From: Sphagnum compactum
Taxonomy: Eukaryota
Reading direction: 5' to 3'
DNA: 64,000 nucleotides
Assembly: GCA_965153455.1 (NCBI GenBank)
Contig: OZ234493.1
Coordinates: 27,208,213 to 27,272,212 of the forward strand
Shown here: in pieces, positions 1 through 12,550 of the stretch
Layout: each line of letters starts with the position of its first letter
How positions within the stretch are numbered: position 1 is the stretch's first letter
Made by a program: the position numbers and the translations under genes
The notes under the pieces: generated by a model
What the model was told of the DNA's origin: nothing
The model's input: only the letters and a program-made list of their open reading frames with translations
The model's database searches: none

Positions 1-315
1 TTGATTTACATGGGAACCATAGTCCTATGGCTCACCATTGTATGTTGAAAGAAACACACACCATTTCTTACATCCAACAAACTAGCCATGTGGATAGAGG
101 GAGATGAAAAAGAAATAGCTTACGCCCAAGCTACTGAAAGCTTGAAGGTGGTTCCTACTAACATTCAACACGGACCAAAGGTTTTATAGAGGTTCAAAGC
201 AGCCCACGAGCCCTTGGTCATAGCTCTGTCTAGTTTTGAGAACATGGAGAGCCATGGCAAATCGATTAAGCCAGTACTTCGTCAGCTAATCACCTGGACA
301 CCCCCTAAGGAAGGG

Positions 316-1250
316 ATTACATTACAAGAGCTCTTTGGTGGTATTGGTATAGGTCTCGAAACCCTACTATAGTCAGGGATGGTGGTTTAGAAGTTTTTAT
401 ACGTAGACATTGATCCTATTGCAAGGCACTTGGCGGCATCGAGAATGATGGAGCTCATAGCCAGATTTCCACAACAGTTTGCAACCACCACATGGAAGGC
501 CAGTTTCACTTTCTTGCCCTTTGACATACAACTAATTCAAAAGAAGCATATGGAATTACTTGGCTCCATGGACCTCATCATTTCAGGTTGTGAGTGTCAA
601 GGATTTGGAGAAGGCTTGAGTGACACAAGATCCGGTCTCTTCACGGACATGGTACGATTGATCATTTAGGCTCAATCCATTTCTCCTACGCTTGATATGT
701 GATTGAAAACACCCCTTCTCAACTTGACCAGAGGGAGAAAGTCCAGGAGCACTACACGCTGGTCAAACATTACCTTAGAAAATTGTTCCTACTCGATGTG
801 GCACAATGCGATTCATGTGCGCACCAGCTGCGCAACTGGTGGACCAACCTTGCACCACTCTCATTTTTGCAGTTGGTTTTGAAATATACCATCAGATTCC
901 CCAACCTACAGGTTTTTCACATATTGGATGATCAGAGCTCCTGCCAACCAGTTACAAGGTAAAAGAAACCTCCTTGGTTTCCTACGAACATAATAGGAAA
1001 ACCAAGAGGTGCTTGGCCCACCTTTGTCTCCTTCCCAGCAACACATGCCTTTCAGGGAGTTGGACCAGGCCTAGTGTATCATCATGCTTCAGCCACTTGG
1101 GATGAACCAAGCCCAAAAGAAAGAGAAAGGGTTATGGGGTTCTAAACTGGCAAACTAGTCACACTAAGGTGACTAGACTGGAGCATAACGCTCTACTGAG
1201 GAGAGGCATGGACCTAAATTCCCTTACATGGTTGTTGGTAACTTGTGTAT
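316..1250 (+). pseudogene. DNMT3-like C5-cytosine DNA methyltransferase domain embedded in the retrotransposon polyprotein (disrupted)
   Basis: Manual translation gives the motifs in canonical order: ITLQELFGGIGIG (I, FxGxG, 328-354), YVDID (II), PFDIQ (III), DLIISGCECQGF (IV, Cys at 595), GLSDTRSGLF (V), YVIENT (VI, ~696-713), LDVAQCDSCAHQLRNWWTNL (VIII), EPSPKERERVMGF (IX, ~1104-1143), TRLEHNALLRRGMDLNSLTWLL (X). Stops at 370, 388, 667 and 960, plus frameshifts. Confidence 0.88.
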
Positions 1251-1554
1251 TCTTTCAAATTTACACAACACCAGCACTGATTCAATCAACTTGCAGTTCT
1301 AGCAATGCGACTACATGGCACCCCAACCAAGTACACTTGCCTATCTTCAACACTTTACACTTCACTCTTAGTGTTGGGGGGGAGGAGGTACCATGTAATT
1401 TGATCAAGTTGTTTCTGATACACTTGGAGGTACATCAACTTCTAAAGAAATAATTACAACCTTCTACGAATCTGCGCAGTTGGATAATGGAGAACCCAAT
1501 ACAGCAAGTTCTTCAACACATTTTCCAACTCCATTCCATGTGTTTCCAACTACC

Positions 1555-2860
1555 CTTTCATTATGGGGAACCAGCTCACCAAGAAGGAGAGAGACTAGGT
1601 CACAGACTTACTAATTAAGTATGAGAATGTGTTCGCATTCTTAATGAAAGACTTAGGTAAGTGTAAGAGCAGAAGTTCTCTATAGACCTTATAGATGAGA
1701 CACCCATCTATCGGAGGACGCATAGGTTGAGCAAGCATGAATGGGAACTGGTAGATGAAAGATGCAAAGAGCTCCATGAGGCTGGTCTCATTCAGCCATC
1801 AAGTTCTAATTTCGCAACCGCAACAGTAATGCCAACAAAGAAGGATTCAGCTGGATTATGGACTGAGAAAGGGATGTGCAAGGATTATAGGCTTTTGAAC
1901 CTGGTTACACCTTAGGACAGGTACCCCATGCCCATCCCTAAAGAACTATTTGATAACATTGGAGACTCAAACATCTTCACAATTGTGGATCTGAAGCAAG
2001 GCTTCAACCAAATTGTGCTCGCTGCGAAGGATCGCAAGAAAACGGCGTTCCATGGAATGAACAAGTTAAGGGAATGGCTTGTGATGCCTTTTGGATTGAA
2101 GAATGCACATGTCTTTTTTCAGCAAGTCATGGACCAAGTTCTCAAAGGGGTAGATTTCTTGAAGTGCTACATAGATGATGTCCTAGTGCATAGCAAGGGA
2201 CTCTTGCAACACTTGGTTCATCTTGAGGAATTATTCAAAAGGCTCCAAGAAGTCGATATGAAGATCCATCCCAAAAAGTGTGAATTTGTTGTCACCTCAA
2301 TAGTCTACCTTGGCCACAAAATTTTGCCAAATGGTATTATGGCTCATTGGGCCAAAGTAGTAGCCATTTTGGAGATGCCCATTCTTACTAATGTTCACTT
2401 TGATGAGCTTCATCGGACTATGTAATTACTACAAGATTTATGTCCAAAACTTCAGTACTATTGTTCATCCTCTTTATGCATTGTTAAAGAAGGATGTTGT
2501 TTGGACATGGAGTGAAGAGGCTCAAGACGCTTTCAACACACTCAAGGAAAAGCTTTCAGAGTTCCCCACTCTAAGAAGACTTGATTTCAACAAGGTCTTC
2601 ATTCTACACACTTACTGGAGTGCTCTTGGTATTGGTGTTATTCTTGGCCAACTTGATGAGGAATGCAAGGAATATGTTATCGCCTACGCATCCCAAAGCA
2701 ACAAGGCTGAGAACAACTACTCTTCATACGAGGGGAAGTGTTTTGTTGTTGTATGGGCCATCATACATTTCAGGCCCTATCTTTATGGCACCAAGTTCAC
2801 TTTGCATACCAACCACCAACCTATCAAGTGGTTGATGACCAACGACAAGCTTATTGGTAA
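1555..2860 (+). pseudogene. Gypsy reverse transcriptase and N-terminal RNase H of the outer element
   Basis: ORF fragments 1727-1915, 1928-2425 and 2391-2860 with standard gypsy RT/RH motifs (YIDD; FILHT..SALGIGVILGQ; YSSYEG.C..VVWAI.HFRPYLYG). Confidence 0.95.
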
Positions 2861-3127
2861 TGTTATGGACCGACTACAAACAAGTGGAGAATTACAAGAC
2901 AAGACAAGCTTTATTGACCCATCAACTAGTGTTGATCTGCTGAAGGGTTGTTCCCTAGACTATCTCCTTTTATAACCCTGAGCCATACTAGTCCCAAAAT
3001 ATCCTAGGCCATGATATTGCCAAAAGTATCCCAAATTATCCTAGGCCATGATATTGCAAAAAGTATCCCAAAATATCCTAGGAAATGACATTGCCAAAAG
3101 TATCCCAAAATATCGTAGGCCATGCCA
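2861..3127 (-). repeat. 3' LTR of the nested chromovirus (267 bp)
   Basis: Direct repeat of 8353-8619 with 8 substitutions by manual alignment; contains about 3.6 copies of a 37-bp unit TCCCAAAATATCCTAGGCCATGATATTGCCAAAAGTA. Confidence 0.97.
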
Positions 3128-6100
3128 TTATCCTCTCCTCAAGCGACATCTTCTAGATGGAGCCGGTTTGTTAGGATACCGTTGGTGAAACCGATTAACT
3201 AAGTCTTGGGCATGAACTAGGTTTCCAGTAGGCTCCCAAGTAGCTTCAGAAGGAGGATAACCTCGCCAAAAGACAAGGTATAAGAACTTTCCACGAATCT
3301 TCTTGGAGTCCAAGACCTCCTGAACTTCAAACTCTTCTTGGCCTTCAATTTCGACTGGAGCTGGGGGTTCTTGATGACGTTCTGGGATCGGGTTTTCAGG
3401 ATAGGGCTCAAGCAGGGAGACATGGAAAACATTGTGGATTTTGAACTGGGGTGGAAGCTCCAACTGGCAAGCCACTAGACCAACCAATTTGGCGATTTTG
3501 AAAGGCCCGAGGCGCTTGTAATCCAACTTGGCACATGGGCGAGTGGTAGCAATGTTCTTTCTGAGAAGCCAGACCTTGTCTCCAACCTTGAAGTTTGGAT
3601 GGTCCTTGCGTCGGCGGTCTGCTTGCTTCTTTTGCCACTCCTCTGTTAGCTTGAGTTCTGCCATAAGGTTCTGTTGAACTTGTCCAAGCCTCGTGGCCCT
3701 TTCTTCAGCCGAGGGGTTTACAGAGTCTCCAAGAATTTCAAGGCTGAACCTGGGATGAAAACCGTAATTGGCAAAGAATGGACTGATCCCGGTCGATGCA
3801 TGTGTTGTGTTATTATAAGCAAACTCTGCTTGAGATAGTAGGTCCAGCCAGTCGTCCTGTTGGTAGTTCACAGTGCAGCGAAGGTATTGCTCGAGTGTCT
3901 GGTTTGTCCGTTCGGTTTGTCCATCTGTCTCAGAGTGGAAAGCTGAAGATAGTCGAATGTCAACTCCAAGAAGCTCGAATACACGATGCCAGAACTTGGA
4001 TGCAAACTAAAGACCTCTGTCGGACACAATTTCCTCGGGGAGTCCATGCAGTCGGACAATCCCGTCTAGAATTAACTAAGCTGTCTCTTTTGCCGTGATT
4101 GACTTGGAACAAGGGGTGAAATGGGCCATTTTGGTGAGTCGATCGACCACAACCAGTATTGAATTATTGGTTCTGACAATAGGGAGGTCTGTGATGAAGT
4201 CCATTGCAATAGATCCCCAAGGTCGGCTAGGAATCGACAGAGGCTGTAGGAGTCCAAACGGGCAATGCCTGGGAGCCTTGGATCGAGCACATGTATCACA
4301 AAACTTGACATACTCCCGTAGCATCTTGTTCATTTTGGGCCACCAATAAGTCCTTGACACTAGTTCGTGAGTCCGTGCCATTCCAAAGTGACCCGCCAGG
4401 GTGTTGTCGTGGCATTCTCTCAGGATTTTTAGGCGTATAGGTCTTTCGGGTACATAAATCAGGTTATTTCGAAGAAGTCCGTCTTGTTGCTCAAACTGAT
4501 CCAAGTCATCACGATTTGGGTTCCTTGGTCGTTGCTGGAGTTCCTTCTTGATGTTGATAGCCCAGGTGTCTTCCTCAGTTGCCATCTTGATGTCCCTGAC
4601 AAGGTATGAATCTGGGAGGGTGCTGATTGTTGCTGCAACTCAAAATTGCTCGGGGTTGAGTAAAGTCTGGTTCTGCTGGCCGTAGGCCTCATCCCCTGCT
4701 CGAAGTTCATATTTTAAACGACGAGATAGCGCGTCAGCTTTCCCTTGCTAGGTGCCGGGTTGAAACTGAATCTCAAAGTCGAAATCAGCTAGGAAGATAG
4801 ACCAGCGTGCCTGGCGACAATTTAAGGTCTGAGTAGTTGTGAAATAAAGGAGATTCTTGATCTATCAGAACTTGGACTCGATGTTGAGCTCCGGCAAGAT
4901 ACGGTCTCCACTGCTCGAATGCCGTGATGATTGCCAGGAGTTCCTTATCGTAGACCTGGTAGTTGATTTCGGCACTGGTTAACTTTCGTGAATAGAAAGC
5001 AACTGGATGCAGCAACCCATTTATTCCAAATTGAGATAGAATAGCTCCCAAGGCAAAATCTGAAACATCCGTTTCCACAATGAATGGCTTGGCAGGATCG
5101 GGATGTATCAGGATGGGTGCAGAAGTGAATGCCATCTTGAGAGTATCAAAAGCAGCCTGGGCCGTTGGATTCCACGAGAAGGGCTTGTCTTTGCAAGTCA
5201 GGGTTATTAACGGTGTTGTGATCTTAGAGTAGCCTTTGATAAACCGACGATAGAAGTTGGCAAACCCTAGGAAGCGTTGAATGTCCTTGACCGAGGATGG
5301 AGTAGCCCAACACTGGATGGTCTCGACCTTTGACTTGTCCATGAAAATGCCATCTGGAGAGATCACGTAGCTGAGGAACGCCACTGAAGATTTGTCGAAT
5401 TCACATTTATCCAACTTGGCGTATAAGCCATGCTCCCGGAGCGTCGCAAGCACCAATCGTACATGTTTGTCGTGGGTTTCCTGGTCCTTGGAAAAGATTA
5501 AAATGTCATCCAAATAGACCACGACAAATTCGTCCATGTAATCCCGGAAGATATCATTTATTAAATGCTGAAAGACTGCGGGTGCATTGGTGAGGCCGAA
5601 GGGCATGACCGTGTATTCGAAGTGGTCGTAGCGTGTGCGGAAAGCTGTCTTCCATTCATCACCGGGGCGAATCCTGAGTAAGTTGTAGGCTCCACGGAGG
5701 TCAAGCTTGGTGAAGATCTTCCCGGTATGTAGTCGATCTAGGAGACCTGAAATCAAGGGCAAGGGATATCGATTCTTTTTGGTGATCTTGTTGAGTCCAC
5801 GATAATCCACACAGAGTCGAAGGGAGCCATCCTTCTTCTTGACAAACAAAATTGGGGCGCCGGCTGAAGACTTGGAATGCTGAATGAACCCCTTGGCAAG
5901 ATTTTCAATAAGGTAATCACGCAAGGCTTGGAGTTCCGGTTCCGATAGGCCATAGATAGGACCAAAGGGTGATGAATGTCCTTCTTCTAGATCAATCGGG
6001 CAGTCATATGGACTATGGGCGGGGAGCTGATCAGCATTAATCTTTTCAAAAACATCAACAAAGTCCTTGTACTTCTCGGGAAGTTTGACAGGTGTTGGTT

Positions 6101-6940
6101 CTGATTGGGGGTTTATGGTGTTGGCTGGGTTGACATGGATGGCGAAGACTTGAAGATTCTTAGCAGCCCGATAGAAAGGGACAGCTCTATCAACGAAGAT
6201 CTGGACAGAGTTGGTTTTCTGGGCAGGATTCTTAACAAGATTCTTGACAGGACAAGGTTTAGTTCTGACCAACCAGGGGTTCTTGACTGCAGGACTTGAC
6301 ATAACAGACTTTTGATAAAACTGGAATTGGTTCCGACCCTCTTTGGGTTCTCGACCACAGGGTTCTTGGCAGGACTGGACAAAGTGTTTTTCTGAGCGTG
6401 GGGTTCTTGAGAGGTGCACCGTTGTGCGCTGAAGGTGAGGGTTCTAGATTGCCAATCAATGATAGGGTTGTGTGCTTCTAGCCAAGGCAGACCAAGGATG
6501 ATGGGATGGTGAAGGGTGTAGATGATGTTGAGAACAATCTTCTCCGTGTGCTTGTCGATACAGAGTTCTAGAGGGGTTGTCTCGTGTGTGATTGCACCAG
6601 AAGCAATGGTTCTCCCATCAATAACCTCTACCGGAACAGGGGTTGACTTCTTGACCATAAGGATGTTGTGTTCGACGACAAATGTTTGGTCGATGAAAGA
6701 AGAGGTGGCGCTGGAGTCCACCAAAGCTGACACTTGTGGTATGTCTTCTGGAATACGAATGATGTCCACATATTGAGTGAAACTGGGACTGGGACCAACA
6801 GCGGAACAGGAGCCTTTGTAAAGGTGGTGTTGGGTGAGATCCAGTCGCACGGCTCCTACTGTGACTGGATGTTCTTGTTTTCCAACTCTTGGGGAGTTTC
6901 CACAGCTTGTAATTGAAGTTTGATAAGCTTTTGAGGGCAC
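3128..6940 (-). pseudogene. pol of the nested chromovirus: aspartic protease, RT, RNase H, integrase, chromodomain (frameshifted)
   Basis: ALVDSSAT (protease); LRLCVDYRGLN, YLDD (RT); ETDVSDFALGAILSQ, DKELLAI (RH); HDNTLAGHFG..CDTC, MDFITDLP (INT); GPF motif; FEVQEVLDSKK..YLVFWRGYPPSEATWEP (chromodomain, ~3180-3335). Confidence 0.96.
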
Positions 6941-7830
6941 TAACGAGCTATATGCCCTGGGTTACCACAGTAAAGACATAGATTGTTTGTCCTTCGGCGA
7001 AGTTTTTCGGCTTCTGTCAAAGATTTAAACTTAGCTGTGTCGATCTACATCAGAGCAGGTCGAAAAGCGGCAGGTCGGGCAACTGGTGTTGTTTGGGGAA
7101 CTAAGGGGAGCGTAGTAGGCCGATTGTTCCAAAGCTGGGCGTTGGAGGTGATTTTCTTTTCCTGACGACGTTCAAACAAACGATTATCGCACCGAATTGC
7201 CTGGGTGATGGCTTCACTGAAGGAAGAAGGGTCTGCGAGTGTCAACAAAAAATCTTGAACATCATCACGAAGCCCACAGCGAAACTGATCAATCAAAGCA
7301 GCTTCTCCCCAATTGACGTCGTAGGCAAGCGGCCTGAATTCTGAGGCGTAGACGATGGCCGAACGTGTCCCTTGCTGGAGGCGACGCAGCTTGTTGGCTG
7401 AAGTCCTGGCCTTGTCACTGTCCCCAAATACTGCTTCAAATTTCGCCATAAAGGCGTTGAAATCTTATAGGAGAGGGGATGATGTTTCCAGGATGGGAGC
7501 AAACCATGCTGCAGCTGTCCCAGTGAGTAGGGTTCCAACGAATCCTACACGAGTGGTGTCATCAAAATAACGACGGGGGTGTAGTTACATGATCAGGCGT
7601 ACCTGGCTGACAAAGCCTCGAAATTTGAGGCGCGTTCCATCAAACTTTTCTGGTAGACTGATCTTGGGCTCTGAGGCGGCCATTGCAAGAACAGGAAGCA
7701 TTCGGGCAGGAGGTGGTGGCTGATTCTGTAGGCGGGTCACCGAGTCTCTAAGCACGGCATTTTTTTGTTGAAGGTGCTGAAGGGCGGCGAGGATTTGAGT
7801 GAGATCGATGTTTGATTCTGAGTTGTCCAT
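6930..7830 (-). pseudogene. gag of the nested chromovirus (disrupted)
   Basis: MDNSESNIDL..., EPKISLPEKFDG, LRRLQQGTRSA..YASEFR, CCHC knuckle LCLYCGNPGHIA..CP near 6935-6985. Confidence 0.9.
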
Positions 7831-7868
7831 GGTGGTAGTTCTCACACTTTTGCGCTTTCAATCTTCAA

Positions 7869-8177
7869 ACTTGAAACTTCAGATGCTTGGATCTCTCTCA
7901 ATACAAGTCCAAATGACATGAAATTTTTCTCACACATATATTCTTATATAATCTATAAGATCACAAAGTTACAGACCCAAAAAAGCTTAAACAAAGGAGA
8001 TATGACCAAAAAACCAGATCTGCACTTGAAACTTCAGATGCTTGGATCTCTCACAATACAAGTCCAAATGACATGAGATTTCTCTCACACATATATTCCT
8101 ATATGATCTATAAGATCACAAAGTTACAAACCCAAAAAAGCTTAAACAAAGGAGATATGACCAAAAAACCAGATCTG
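7869..8177. repeat. Two tandem ~155-bp copies in the 5' leader of the nested chromovirus
   Basis: ACTTGAAACTTCAGATGCTTGGATCTCTC... starts at 7869 and again at 8024; the copies are near-identical. Confidence 0.93.
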
Positions 8178-8352
8178 GCACAGAGTTTTCAAAAGCTCTT
8201 AACTCTCACAAAACATATCCTTTTCTTTTGAAACTTTGAGAGTAGAAGCGTCCTATAGTCTTCTATAACCTTTCCAAGTTTCACTCCAAGATACCTCTAG
8301 CTACTTACTGAAACAACAAAACAAACAAACAAGAAGAAGGAGTAGATCAAAT

Positions 8353-8619
8353 TGTTATGGATCGACTACAAACAAGTGGATAATTACAAGACAAGACAAG
8401 CTTTATTGACCCATCAACTAGTGTTGATCTGCTGAAGGGTTGTTCCCCAGACTATCTCCTTTTATAACCCTGAGCCATACTAGTCCCAAAATATCCTAGG
8501 CCATGATATTGCCAAAAATATCCCAAAATATCCTAGGCCATGATATTGCAAAAAGTATCCCAAAATATCCTAGGACATGACATTGCCAAAAGTATCCCAA
8601 AATATCCTAGGCCATGACA
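8353..8619 (-). repeat. 5' LTR of the nested chromovirus (267 bp)
   Basis: TGTTATGG...CCATGACA termini; minus-strand TATAAAA at 8466-8460 and AATAAA at 8407-8402. Confidence 0.97.
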
Positions 8620-8624
8620 GGTAA

Positions 8625-10300
8625 GTTAGCTCGTTGGGCACTTATACTTCAAGAGTATGAGTTCAAGGTTATTCACCGACCTAGTATTAGACATCAGAAT
8701 GCGAATACCATGTCGCGGAGACCCCTCATTACCTCTAAAGATTTCTTAGAAGCCAGGCAAGAGTTCGACCATATTCCAGCATTACATGTATCTTATACAT
8801 CTAGTTATTTTGCACTATTGTAATGTAACTTGGTTGAACATCCCATTGTGGATATATGAGAGGACTTGGACACTTTGAGGTTCCTTCAGCATGGGGAATA
8901 CCCTCCCCAAGTCACATAAAGTCATCAGGATTGCATACAATAGCGGTCCAAACACTACTCATGGAGGGACAATCACCTTGTCCGATGCTTACCGCAAGGT
9001 GACATAGTGGTTCCTCCACCACATGAACGAACTGATCTTATTCAAAAGGTACACTCAAAGCTTGGACATTTTGGAATTAAGCATACTTATAGCCTTCTTG
9101 CTCCTCATTACCATTGGAGAGGTATGTATGCTCAAGACCGAAATGTCATTGCTAGGTGTGAACAATATGATAGAGTGAGAACTTCCTTCTCCTCTCAACA
9201 GCTCACGCTTTCTCCACTCCCTATTCAGGGCATGTTCTATCGTTGGTCATGTGATTTAGCTAGAGAATTACCACAGACCTCCAGGGGTAATGTCTACATC
9301 ATGATTATGATTGAGCATTTTTCAAAGTGGGTCGAGCTTGTTGCACTGCCCGACAAGTCATCACACAACACTAGTTAGGCTTTCTTACAACGAGTCTTAA
9401 GGAGGTTTGGGGCTTGTGCTGAGTGCCTTACTAATCAAGGATCAGAATTTAGAGGAGAATTCCAATACCTACTTGATCATGCTCTCATTCACCATCGCCG
9501 GACTTCAAAGGATCATCCCCAAGCTGATGGCCTTGCAGAAAGGATGGTTCAGACATGCAAGAAGGGACTTTGGAAGATTTGCCTCATTAGGAACAAAGAG
9601 AGTTAGGACCTGGCCTTACCTTACATCGCCATGGGTTACAAAATGTCCAAACACGCCTCTTTGTCTCATTTCGCTCCTTACTTTCTACTTTTTGGGAGAC
9701 ATCCCATTCCACCCTCTTCCATTGCTACTCAAATGGACCAGGTTGTGGACTTGGACTCCCCAGCCACTTGGGTTAGGGTCCCATCGCAGAGAGGGCTGCT
9801 TTATTTAGGAGGGTTATGCCCATGGCCATGGAGAACTTGTCCATTGCATAACATCAAGACACCTTATGGTATGCACACACATGAGGTGGCAGTTACAAAC
9901 CTAAGGTGAGACAATTTGATGTTAGTGACTTTGTGTATCTCCAGTCGCAACCTAATGATACTCTGGACATTTCTTCTGGTCGCACTATCTTGAGGATTAA
10001 GGCAATCAGGCCTTCAAGTGTGTTAGAGTTGCAAGGAGCTGACGAATGCACAATTTAGGATCACTCTAAAAATTGTGCGCCCTGCCACCTGCCAAACTTG
10101 GATCCTACCATCATCACGTCGACTTGGATTGCTCCACTTGACTATCCATGTTAGATATGTTAGAGGATAGATGATCTTGATTAGATGCTGCTTTGCGATA
10201 ATTATAATGGTGGATAACATCCATTCTACCTCAAGCCAAAGCTCACTCAAATTCCTTCTGACATTTGGTATTATTCATCATGTTCTCCTGTAGCACCTTG
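8625..10300 (+). pseudogene. C-terminal RNase H, DDE integrase and C-terminal PHD finger of the outer element
   Basis: LARWALILQEYEFKVIHRP..HQNANTMSR; HHCC; core integrase (WSCDLA, TNQGSEF, HPQADGLAERMVQT); from 10140: DYPC*IC*RIDDLD*MLLCDNYNGG*HPFYLKPKLTQIPSDIWYYSSC, a decayed C4HC3 PHD. Confidence 0.88.
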
Positions 10301-10350
10301 ATTTCTACTTAAACCATGCCACGTTTTTCCCGGCTCAAGTTTAGGGGGGG

Positions 10351-11642
10351 ATACATGAAAATTTTATCTACTAGTTTCCTTTTGTGCATTATATATATAT
10401 ATGTGCGTGCATCTCTTTTTGGTTGATTAGTTTCTACCTTTAACTGGTTTTAGTCTTTTTGTTCAATAGAGTTTACTATGGATTTACACCCTTACGACAT
10501 CGTACGTCACGACAGTTGTCATGCTCGTATGCATGGCCTCATACATGACAGCCAGTTACGAGCATGCCAATCATGCCTTTGGGGTTAATGTACTTTCTTA
10601 AGTTACTTTACGTTATTAGGTGTTTTAGGGTTATGGCTTGTTTAGGGTTTCAACTTTGTTGACGGCTGTATAAAAAGCCAAGTTTTTCCCTTCTCTTGTC
10701 AATTTGTCTATAATTCCTTTATTAGGGAGAGTTTCCTCCATAGTTAAATTGGATTTCTAAATGCTCACGACGGCTATTATACGGCCACCGTTTACATACA
10801 CCATACATGAGAATTTCATCTACCAATTTCTTCTTGTGCATTATATATATACTAGTGTGTACCCGGTGCATAATGCACCCGTTGAGCTCCCTCCCGCCCG
10901 GTCCTTCCCATTGCCCACTCCGGTTCTTTACCCCGTCGACCCCCCCCATCCTTCGCATTTTCCACTCCGATTCTTTAACCCGTTGATCCCCCCCCCCCCC
11001 GTTCCCCTGTTATATATGATTAACTTCCCGCCCCGTGCTGGCCCCCCCCCCCCCCGATGCTGGATGGATTCCAGACATTTCATCCATTTAAGCTGGACGG
11101 ACATTTCATGCATCTCATCATCCGTCTATTATCGGACGGACATTTCATCCATCCCGTCATCCGTCTAATTAAGCCGGACGGACATTTCATGCATCCTGTC
11201 ATCCATCTATTACCGGATGGACATTTCATCCATCCCGTCATCTGGCTTAAATGGGGTGAAAGGAGGACAACATTTGACAAAACATGCATGGAAAGGGTGA
11301 TTATCTACTGTCCAAGTGGAAATTGAACAGTGGACAGTCCACTTTCCACACCAAACACAATTGGCCAAAAAAATCCACTTCCTCTCCCCCCCCTCCCTCC
11401 ACCCACCCCCCAAAACCTCTGTCCCTGTCACCCGCTGCTTCACCGGGTGACATCCCTCCCCCACCCCCCAAAACCTCCATCACAAACACAGAGACTTACT
11501 GAATTAATATATTAAGATGTGTGTGCATCTCTTTTTGGTTGATTAGTTTTTACCTTTGACTGGTTTTAGTCTTTTTGTTTAGAGTTTACTATGGATTTAC
11601 ACCCTTACGACACCGTACGTCACGACACTACACGTCATGACA
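10351..11642 (+). repeat. 3' terminal repeat region of the outer element, A(10351-10514)-B(10517-10802)-A'(10803-10851 + 11518-11642)
   Basis: A ~165-bp direct repeat occurs twice (ATACATGA.AATTT...TTACACCCTTACGACA.CGTACGTCACGACA). B starts TGTCATG and contains TATAAAAAG (~10669). The region ends CATGACA. Confidence 0.75.
10852..11517 (-). mobile_element. Non-autonomous Helitron
   Basis: Minus strand begins A|TCTTAATATATT (11517) and ends with the hairpin GGTGCA-TTA-TGCACC (10865-10879) followed by ...ACACTAG|T (10852). Inserted at an AT dinucleotide with no TSD. The empty site is preserved in repeat copy A (~10390-10415). Confidence 0.88.
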
Positions 11643-11669: not shown

Positions 11670-12550
11670 ATTGACCATGGCTAAACTAACTTTGGGTAAA
11701 TTAATGATGACTAAACTAAATTTGACTAAACTAAATTTAACTAAATTAACCATGGTTAAACTTAATTTGATTGACCTAACTATATATGGTTATATCAATG
11801 AAAATTTAAATTAAACATGTTTAAACTATTTAAGAAGCTAAACTAACAATGGCTAAATTAACTAAAAGGTTAAACTAAACATGGTTAAACTAATCATGAT
11901 TAAACTATCCACGTCTAAATTAATTAGAAGGCTAAATTAATTAATTTATGTTTACTTTAACCATGTTAGTTTAGCCATGGTTAATTTAGGCTCTTAAATA
12001 ATTTAACCATGATTAATTTAAATTTCTCATTAGTTTAGCCATGGTTAGTTTAGCCAAAATTAGTTTACCCATCATTGATTTAACTATGGTTAATTTAACT
12101 AAAATTAAAGTAGCCATCATTAGTTTAACCATGGTTAATTTAACCAAATTTAATTTAGCAAAAGTTAATTTAGCCATGGTTAATTTACTCAAATTTAATT
12201 TAGCCATTGTTAATTTAACCATGGTTTGTTTAATCATGGTTAATTTAACAACAACTAATTTAACCAAAGTTAGTTTAACTGTGGTTAGTTTAGCTATGAC
12301 TAGTTTGGTTATGGTTAATTTAATTAGTTTAAGCATGTTAGTTTAATTTCCTAGTTATTTTAGTCATGGTTAGTTTAGCATCCTAACTAATTTAGTCATG
12401 GTTAATTTAGTTAGTTTAGCCATGGTTGGTTTAGCTTCATAATTAGTTTAACCATGATTAGGTTAACCTAAGGTGATTCAACCATTGTTGATTTAACTAA
12501 GGTTTATTTTAGGTTTAGCTTAAGTTAGTGTGAGTTTAGCCTAGTTTAAG
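11670..12550. repeat. AT-rich ~15-bp degenerate minisatellite (TTAACCATGGTTAAT / TTAGCCATGGTTAGT) with an orientation switch near 11940
   Basis: Visible periodicity; it produces the spurious 5-aa-repeat ORFs 12013-12336 and 12041-12346. Confidence 0.85.

Follow-up and report, generated by a model that had tools for sequence, protein, structure and literature searches.

A degenerate PHD finger at the integrase end of a decayed Gypsy-type Pol in Sphagnum compactum, and its place in a green-lineage retrotransposon family

The 64,000 nucleotides of Sphagnum compactum DNA analysed here (contig OZ234493.1, positions 27,208,213 to 27,272,212; hereafter the window, whose own positions serve as coordinates) contain a decayed long terminal repeat (LTR) retrotransposon of the Ty3/gypsy type, and the Pol polyprotein of this element ends in a damaged PHD finger. 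Judged by its alignments, the stretch 10149-10283 derives from a canonical C4HC3 PHD zinc finger, of which it is a mutated remnant, and is real beyond chance. We give a probability of roughly 0.8 to the joint reading that this remnant closes a Gypsy Pol and that, in functional members of the family, the PHD finger would tether the integrase to histone H3 tails. The window copy is without function of its own and has its value as a pointer to the family, which offers a checkable example of retrotransposons with a PHD finger in the place of the chromodomain, part of them with a cytosine methyltransferase in addition.

The finger remnant in the window copy

An earlier note, written from the DNA letters without database searches, had proposed that the integrase has a C-terminal PHD finger, with three cysteines exchanged for tyrosine and missing from the list of open reading frames. 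The quoted string was found in frame 3 as the last part of a module at 9903-10301, which was translated with X at stops and used as a query of 133 residues (P0001; all proteins are cited by such numbers). The cysteine codons of the finger start at 10149, 10158, 10194 and 10281 and the histidine codon at 10218, while the conserved tryptophan codon lies at 10266, two residues ahead of the position of the final cysteine pair. At ligand positions 4, 6 and 7 tyrosine codons are found (TAT 10203, TAC 10227 and TAT 10272), which agrees with the proposed G-to-A changes. Hence, five of the eight zinc ligands are left (pattern CCCYHYYC) and the window copy does not hold a complete C4HC3 set. Four in-frame stops interrupt the finger (TAG 10152, TAG 10161, TAG 10182 and TAA 10215), a further one (TAG 10056) lies upstream of it inside the module, and no plus-strand open reading frame of at least 60 amino acids covers the finger stretch, as had been noted.

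The suggested comparison of the stop-corrected translation with the Pfam profile PF00628 was successful in part: PHD was the sole family match of the module at E ≤ 10 and was covered over its full length (profile positions 1-47 of 47), but the score stayed below the Pfam gathering threshold, which is clearly passed by the relatives P0002 (43.0 bits), P0276 (42.5 bits) and P0269 (44.6 bits). Over residues 1-131 the module shares 72.5% identity with the C-terminal 131 residues of the 929-amino-acid protein P0002 (BLASTP, E = 5e-63). A phmmer search with the module in a database of 1.84 billion representative proteins returned 982 matches at E ≤ 0.001, 338 of them at E ≤ 1e-10, with a best value of 4.1e-61. 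All three tyrosines of the window copy stand opposite cysteine in 16 of 16 aligned relatives, and compared with P0002 three of the stops stand opposite glutamine and one opposite tyrosine. Among the proteins closely related to the window copy (60-87% identity), most are likewise decayed, and cysteine has recurrently been lost to tyrosine; P0117 is an intact one. In P0141, a decayed copy from elsewhere, tyrosine occupies the same three ligand positions as in the window. These shared residues could have been inherited from a copy that was damaged before, or recurrent hits at the same sites could have produced them.

These alignments also bear on the trivial explanation that a chance stretch rich in Cys and His, or the fragment of a host PHD gene beside a transposon, had been mistaken for a part of the element. 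Taken alone, the window copy with its score under the gathering value would allow such a view. However, the module is collinear with the integrase, it aligns with the C-terminus of an intact polyprotein at the identity given above, hundreds of relatives have it at the C-terminus of their Pol, and even the sequence past the stop is common to other copies. Hence, a chance or host-gene origin was rejected on the collinearity with P0278 described below, the alignment to relatives and the phmmer matches, and we consider it next to impossible.

The surrounding retrotransposon comprises the following features, including a younger element that is nested in it:

190-1151, plus strand: C5 cytosine DNA methyltransferase (DNMT) domain, decayed, in several frames with stops (PF00145 and tblastn)
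1673-2860, plus strand: reverse transcriptase and most of the RNase H (RVT_1, E = 1.6e-27; RT_RNaseH_2, E = 5.9e-27)
2861-8619, minus strand: nested chromovirus with gag, protease, reverse transcriptase, RNase H, integrase, SH3 and chromodomain (LTRs and Pfam)
8620-9804, plus strand: end of the RNase H, then integrase, of which the H2C2 zinc finger (Integrase_H2C2, E = 1.3e-13) and the catalytic core (rve, E = 9.2e-4) were recognised
9903-10136, plus strand: integrase C-terminal beta-barrel (SH3/Tudor-like) and linker, in frame 3 with one stop (10056), aligned to relatives
10149-10283, plus strand: degenerate PHD finger (C4HC3) in frame 3; ligands 1, 2, 3, His and 8 kept, ligands 4, 6 and 7 Tyr, four in-frame stops
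10299-10301, plus strand: TGA, at the end point of the polyproteins in intact relatives (P0002, P0276 and P0278 stop 5 residues past the last Cys)
10341-11627, plus strand: probably the 3' untranslated part and terminal repeats of the host element, recognised by repeats and matches to the tails of relatives, extent uncertain

The stretch 190-10298 is collinear with the uninterrupted open reading frame of 1471 amino acids of P0278 at 61-83% identity. In tblastn searches, amino acids 2-327 of P0278 matched 190-1151 at 61-73% identity, amino acids 517-915 matched 1673-2864 at 72-83% and amino acids 911-1307 matched 8614-9804 at 77%; amino acids 31-317 of P0018 matched 310-1151. Accordingly, a C5-DNMT domain lies inside the Pol reading frame, in line with the methyltransferase of P0278 and P0018. 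Its Pfam match (PF00145 on 391-666, E = 1.4e-4) reaches 21.9 bits in this decayed copy, just under the cut-off of 22 that is passed in relatives. The order of domains is DNMT, reverse transcriptase, RNase H, integrase, beta-barrel and PHD finger, in which the succession of reverse transcriptase, RNase H and H2C2/DDE integrase is of the Ty3/gypsy type. By this collinearity, 190-10301 is taken as one decayed Ty3/gypsy-type Pol on the plus strand, belonging to a plant-type LTR retrotransposon. No Chromo domain was found in the host element by Pfam, so that it does not qualify as a chromovirus, and the PHD finger takes the very position that the Chromo domain has in the nested chromovirus of the window, as the earlier note had supposed.

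The window copy is dead: the chromovirus splits it, stops and frame changes are found in the DNMT and the integrase (in the latter stops at 9376 and 9604, with the frame changing near 9783-9804), and three of eight zinc ligands are lost. Hence, the supposition that this copy itself reads histones and writes methylation has to be dropped, because nothing is read or written by it. The ratio of observed to expected CpG in the host element is 0.30-0.36, and TpG and CpA are in excess. Such a strong CpG depletion is typical of methylated, deaminated repeats, and together with the TpG/CpA excess it fits the transition-type damage within the finger. A second copy of the family was not detected in the window by tblastn with P0018, P0025, P0002, P0003 and P0278, which otherwise gave only weak matches to the nested chromovirus.

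Conservation of the finger and its optional methyltransferase

To define the family by a part of Pol outside the finger, the integrase alone was used as query with X at stops. It returned 115 proteins, 101 of which (E ≤ 3.2e-31) were taken as the family, and the remaining 14 were ordinary Gypsy and other integrases. According to our own count from the search table, the Pfam PHD domain is found in 90 of these 101 integrase-selected relatives, PF00145 in 12 (a lower bound, as many relatives are fragments limited by their contigs) and both domains in 8. A hidden Markov model of the module was built from 16 relatives and run on all fetched proteins. It detected the module in 98 of the 101 relatives; all eight ligands are kept in 91, and the ten exceptions are truncated or without the module. 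P0018, P0061 and P0067 received no Pfam PHD call, yet they possess divergent fingers with all eight ligands. A family-wide loss of zinc ligands, which would have spoken against the proposed finger, was thus not seen.

The finger is also contiguous with the integrase in intact copies. By Pfam coordinates it lies at the extreme end of Pol, about 200 residues past the integrase core, in P0002, P0006, P0025, P0276, P0271 and P0269, and further proteins show the same arrangement. In P0278 the DNMT was assigned to residues 112-168, the reverse transcriptase to 580-733, the RNase H to 796-925, the integrase to 1045-1212 and the PHD finger to 1422-1466; P0278 and P0002 belong to one 90% cluster, and in P0278's own finger two ligand positions are changed. 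Among the relatives scanned by Pfam no Chromo match occurred. Named members of the family come from Klebsormidium, Closterium, Mesostigma and the liverwort Calypogeia, and among these Calypogeia fissa supplies the closest one in the integrase search (70% identity). In sum, the PHD finger is ancestral to a large Gypsy family of the green lineage, in which it is contiguous with the integrase and, in the branch of the window copy, shares the polyprotein with a DNMT. One integrase-PHD protein, P0024, carries the source label of a Spirochaetia metagenome-assembled genome, which is probably due to eukaryotic contamination of the bin.

The DNMT behaves differently from the finger. It precedes the reverse transcriptase in P0018, P0025, P0278 and the window copy, whereas it lies between RNase H and integrase in P0053, P0055, P0071, P0072, P0084, P0094 and P0045; in both layouts the PHD finger stays at the integrase end. 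In P0253 a CCHC knuckle and a protease are followed by the DNMT downstream. The two places in Pol within one integrase family suggest either two captures or an internal move. A search with the DNMT part of P0018 returned 17 proteins, with named members from Closterium and Mesostigma; nine of them reach the integrase and eight of these carry the Pfam PHD, the ninth being P0018 itself. Hence, the claim that a chromatin reader and a methylation writer are paired in one element was borne out insofar as both occur in the same polyprotein, but the pairing is not obligate (PHD in 90 versus DNMT in 12 of the 101 relatives). The DNMT is a separate accessory domain carried by a minority of the family, and its association with the PHD finger is facultative.

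The catalytic motif IV of these methyltransferases shows a further peculiarity. Among 29 relatives scanned, 23 have a recognisable motif IV, and the residue before the catalytic cysteine is glutamate (G-W-E-C-Q) in 13 and the canonical proline in the other 10. The window DNMT also has glutamate at this site (about 590-615). It was considered whether glutamate in the 'PC' motif is a product of decay in the window copy. This was rejected, because glutamate is common across relatives of distant sources, including P0278, P0253-P0255, P0258, P0053 and P0055.

Reader class and proposed role in integration

The fold was evaluated on the intact relative P0117 in place of the broken window copy, using an AlphaFold model based on a 27-sequence alignment. 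The model (mean predicted local distance difference test score 85) predicts a five-stranded barrel (residues 9-59) followed by a zinc finger of the PHD fold, and W121 is invariant in the family alignment. Foldseek matched the pair of domains to the Tudor-PHD cassettes of PHF1, MTF2 and UHRF1, while the finger alone was matched to the PHD fingers of BAZ2A/B, ATXR5, DPF2/3 and KMT2C with root-mean-square deviations of 0.9-1.8 Å over 48-52 columns. By sequence, the best matches in the PDB are KMT2D, KDM5/Lid PHD1, WSTF, BAZ2A/B, ATXR5, CHD4, AIRE and PHF21A; ING, BPTF and TAF3 are absent from the 60 matches listed, among which these comparisons were made. In their titles, the fold-match entries for BAZ2A, ORC1b and UHRF1 refer to peptides of unmodified H3 or of H3K4.

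Binding to histones, the mark preferred and a use in targeting are what we infer from these similarities. The PHD fingers of KDM5 (PHD1), AIRE, BHC80 and CHD4 (PHD2) prefer unmethylated K4. Readers of H3K4me3 place a tryptophan of their aromatic cage two residues ahead of the histidine, a position that is taken by glycine in the family consensus. Because of the nearest solved PHD fingers and the missing cage tryptophan, the finger is considered an H3-tail reader, probably of H3 with unmethylated K4.

In functional members, the PHD finger would thus most likely tether the integrase and the pre-integration complex to the N-terminal tails of histone H3. The tethering would bias the landing sites of new copies in the way assumed for the chromodomain of chromoviruses, and the chromatin state that is read would probably be H3 with unmethylated K4. 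Chromoviruses resemble the present family in that a histone-reader domain with a presumed role in chromatin tethering follows the C-terminal beta-barrel of the integrase at the end of Pol; the difference is that this reader is a chromodomain there and a zinc-binding PHD finger here. If the PHD finger reads unmethylated H3K4, the green lineage would possess, in this family, a second and independent model of integration guided by chromatin.

A different role would result if the finger were coupled to the methyltransferase, as ADD is to DNMT3, so that it reads unmethylated H3K4 and directs or activates the cytosine methylation of the element, with no part in integration. Such a coupling would agree with the joint occurrence of PHD and DNMT in one uninterrupted open reading frame (P0278, P0025, P0053 and others), with the high PHD frequency among the DNMT-selected proteins that reach the integrase (8 of 9), and with the readers solved with unmodified H3 among the nearest PHD structures. 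However, the counts given above leave most PHD-bearing elements without a DNMT to regulate, and the DNMT takes two positions while the PHD finger always adjoins the integrase barrel. Moreover, more than 1200 residues comprising reverse transcriptase, RNase H and integrase separate the two domains in P0278, and no ADD_DNMT3 match was obtained by Pfam at E ≤ 10. The parallel to ADD that had been drawn in the earlier note is therefore not upheld, since the finger is a plain PHD. In animal DNMT3, a Cys-rich reader of the H3K4me0 type and a C5-methyltransferase are likewise joined in one polypeptide, but ADD is a composite of a GATA-like and a PHD-like part next to the methyltransferase, whereas here a single PHD finger occurs, mostly in the absence of a DNMT. 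Because the place of the DNMT varies and the PHD finger always follows the integrase, the finger more plausibly serves the integrase than an ADD-like partnership, and we regard a coupling to the methyltransferase as improbable.

It might also be that the PHD finger reads another mark, such as H3K4me3 or acylated H3K14, or binds a non-histone partner, and thereby steers the element to active chromatin or recruits a host factor. PHD specificity is hard to predict from sequence, and the double PHD fingers of DPF2/3 and KAT6A as well as the complex of Ehd3 with H3K4me1 are among the close matches. However, none of the 60 sequence matches listed is a reader of the ING, BPTF or TAF3 type, the consensus has the glycine two residues before the histidine, and the finger is single and not a tandem of the DPF type. 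Hence, a reader of another mark or partner appears unlikely, and tethering of the integrase to the H3 tail remains the preferred reading.

Several points weigh against this preferred reading. The PHD match of the window copy reaches 17.7 bits (E = 0.0037), under the 24-bit gathering threshold of Pfam, and the copy cannot fold around zinc and is an inert, pseudogenised member of the family. Of 234 fetched proteins matched by the module model, 192 show the C4HC3 pattern, a count that is biased towards the presence of a PHD finger because the phmmer query contained it; the 91 of 101 from the integrase search are the fairer figure. Many relatives are contig-limited fragments, which makes all DNMT frequencies lower bounds, and gag and protease, together with the rest of the 5' end, fall to the left of the window, so that only 3' repeats are visible. 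Furthermore, DPF-type fingers (H3K14 acyl) and the H3K4me1-bound Ehd3 finger are among the close fold matches, the specificity is deduced from resemblance to solved PHD fingers and from what those fingers are known to bind, and targeting of integration by the finger is concluded from sequence and from the likeness to chromoviruses.

A wider scenario can be offered only tentatively. It is conceivable, though somewhat doubtful, that an old Gypsy lineage of streptophytes has an integrase ending in a reader of unmethylated H3K4, to which some branches, that of the window copy among them, added a cytosine methyltransferase, so that the element would both pick chromatin with unmethylated H3K4 for insertion and write 5-methylcytosine. 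It would then be a transposon counterpart of DNMT3 with its ADD logic, the parts having come together independently and at two places in Pol.

The components of this arrangement are each already described, as both DNMT-bearing Gypsy elements and PHD-bearing retrotransposons are in print. The accessible text of de Mendoza et al. 2018 (PMC5890265) reports KnitGypsy-Dnmt3 of Klebsormidium nitens, i.e. Gypsy elements with a Dnmt3-like domain in Pol, which resemble the present element as Gypsy-type LTR elements of a streptophyte whose Pol reading frame includes a C5-DNMT. This likeness concerns the presence of the DNMT in Pol. Proteins of K. nitens are found among the integrase relatives (P0004, with integrase and PHD and 53% identity, and P0026). 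A PHD finger is mentioned neither in the main text of PMC5890265 nor in one of its supplementary text files, although its figures, in particular Fig. 4c, or its PDF supplements may show one. The same text treats the acquisition as specific for the K. nitens lineage, whereas our relatives also come from Closterium, Mesostigma and a liverwort; if true, the known range of DNMT-bearing Gypsy elements would be widened beyond Klebsormidium.

Likewise, retrotransposons often carry PHD fingers, as stated in the available passages of PMC6673714, PMC8557442, PMC9940879 and bioRxiv 10.1101/2021.11.30.470311, the last of which surveys fusions of PHD and transposable elements. REM1 and CR1-like elements are cited as PHD-bearing in the passages of PMC8557442, PMC9940879 and PMC6673714. 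According to these sources, the elements of green algae and other organisms share with the present family an accessory PHD finger in the polyprotein and a proposed role in chromatin binding or choice of insertion site. For Gypsy-7a_cRei the legend in PMC9940879 gives PHD before the integrase, whereas in the present family it follows the integrase and a DNMT is present in part; this element, REM1 and the CR1-like elements are compared here by their published descriptions only. A preprint of 2026 describes, in its accessible text, methyltransferases and chromodomains as epigenetic toolkits in single elements. It has the toolkit of several parts in one retrotransposon in common with our case, but its reader is a chromodomain and no PHD finger appears in that text. 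Hence, the earlier idea of a compact epigenetic toolkit holds as far as the parts co-occur, but the concept itself is already in print. A full-text literature search, whose incomplete coverage makes it weak evidence, found no text pairing PHD and DNMT in one Gypsy Pol; going by the texts searched, there would be no earlier description of this pairing or of its survival past Klebsormidium in land-plant-like genomes.

Repeats, nested chromovirus and neighbouring sequence

Downstream of the Pol stop the host element shows a G-rich purine run at 10341-10350, which is followed by repeated blocks: 10391-10514 resembles 11507-11627 (92%), 10351-10408 resembles 10803-10860 (83%), and a unit of 81 nucleotides occurs twice at 11083-11244. 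The read-through tails of P0118, P0121, P0141 and P0164 match the region 10341-11627. The accessible text of PMC5890265 gives DIRS-like split repeats (A-coding-B-A-B) for KnitGypsy-Dnmt3, and the blocks at 10351-11627 may represent a 3' LTR or split repeats of that kind.

The chromovirus is inserted into the host RNase H. Its LTRs of 267 nucleotides (2861-3127 and 8353-8619) are 97% identical and flanked by a target duplication of 5 base pairs (identical 5-mers at 2856-2860 and 8620-8624), across which the reading frame of the host element runs on. Pfam detected Chromo (E = 7.4e-14) and SH3_Tf2-1 (E = 5.7e-18), with the Chromo-bearing part at 3131-4006 on the minus strand, and the reading frames are largely open, including one of 552 amino acids for reverse transcriptase and RNase H and an integrase with SH3 and chromodomain. 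The chromovirus is clearly younger than the host element, as its ratio of observed to expected CpG is 0.61 compared with 0.30-0.36. In its leader, between the 5' LTR and gag, two tandem copies of a 155-nucleotide unit (95% identical) are found at 7869-8178.

Beyond the host element, a satellite-like array with a period of 15 nucleotides extends from 11670 to 12520; it sets in directly behind the final repeat block of that element and matches its own reverse complement. The remainder of the window at 13000-64000 consists of alternating blocks of 29-53% GC.

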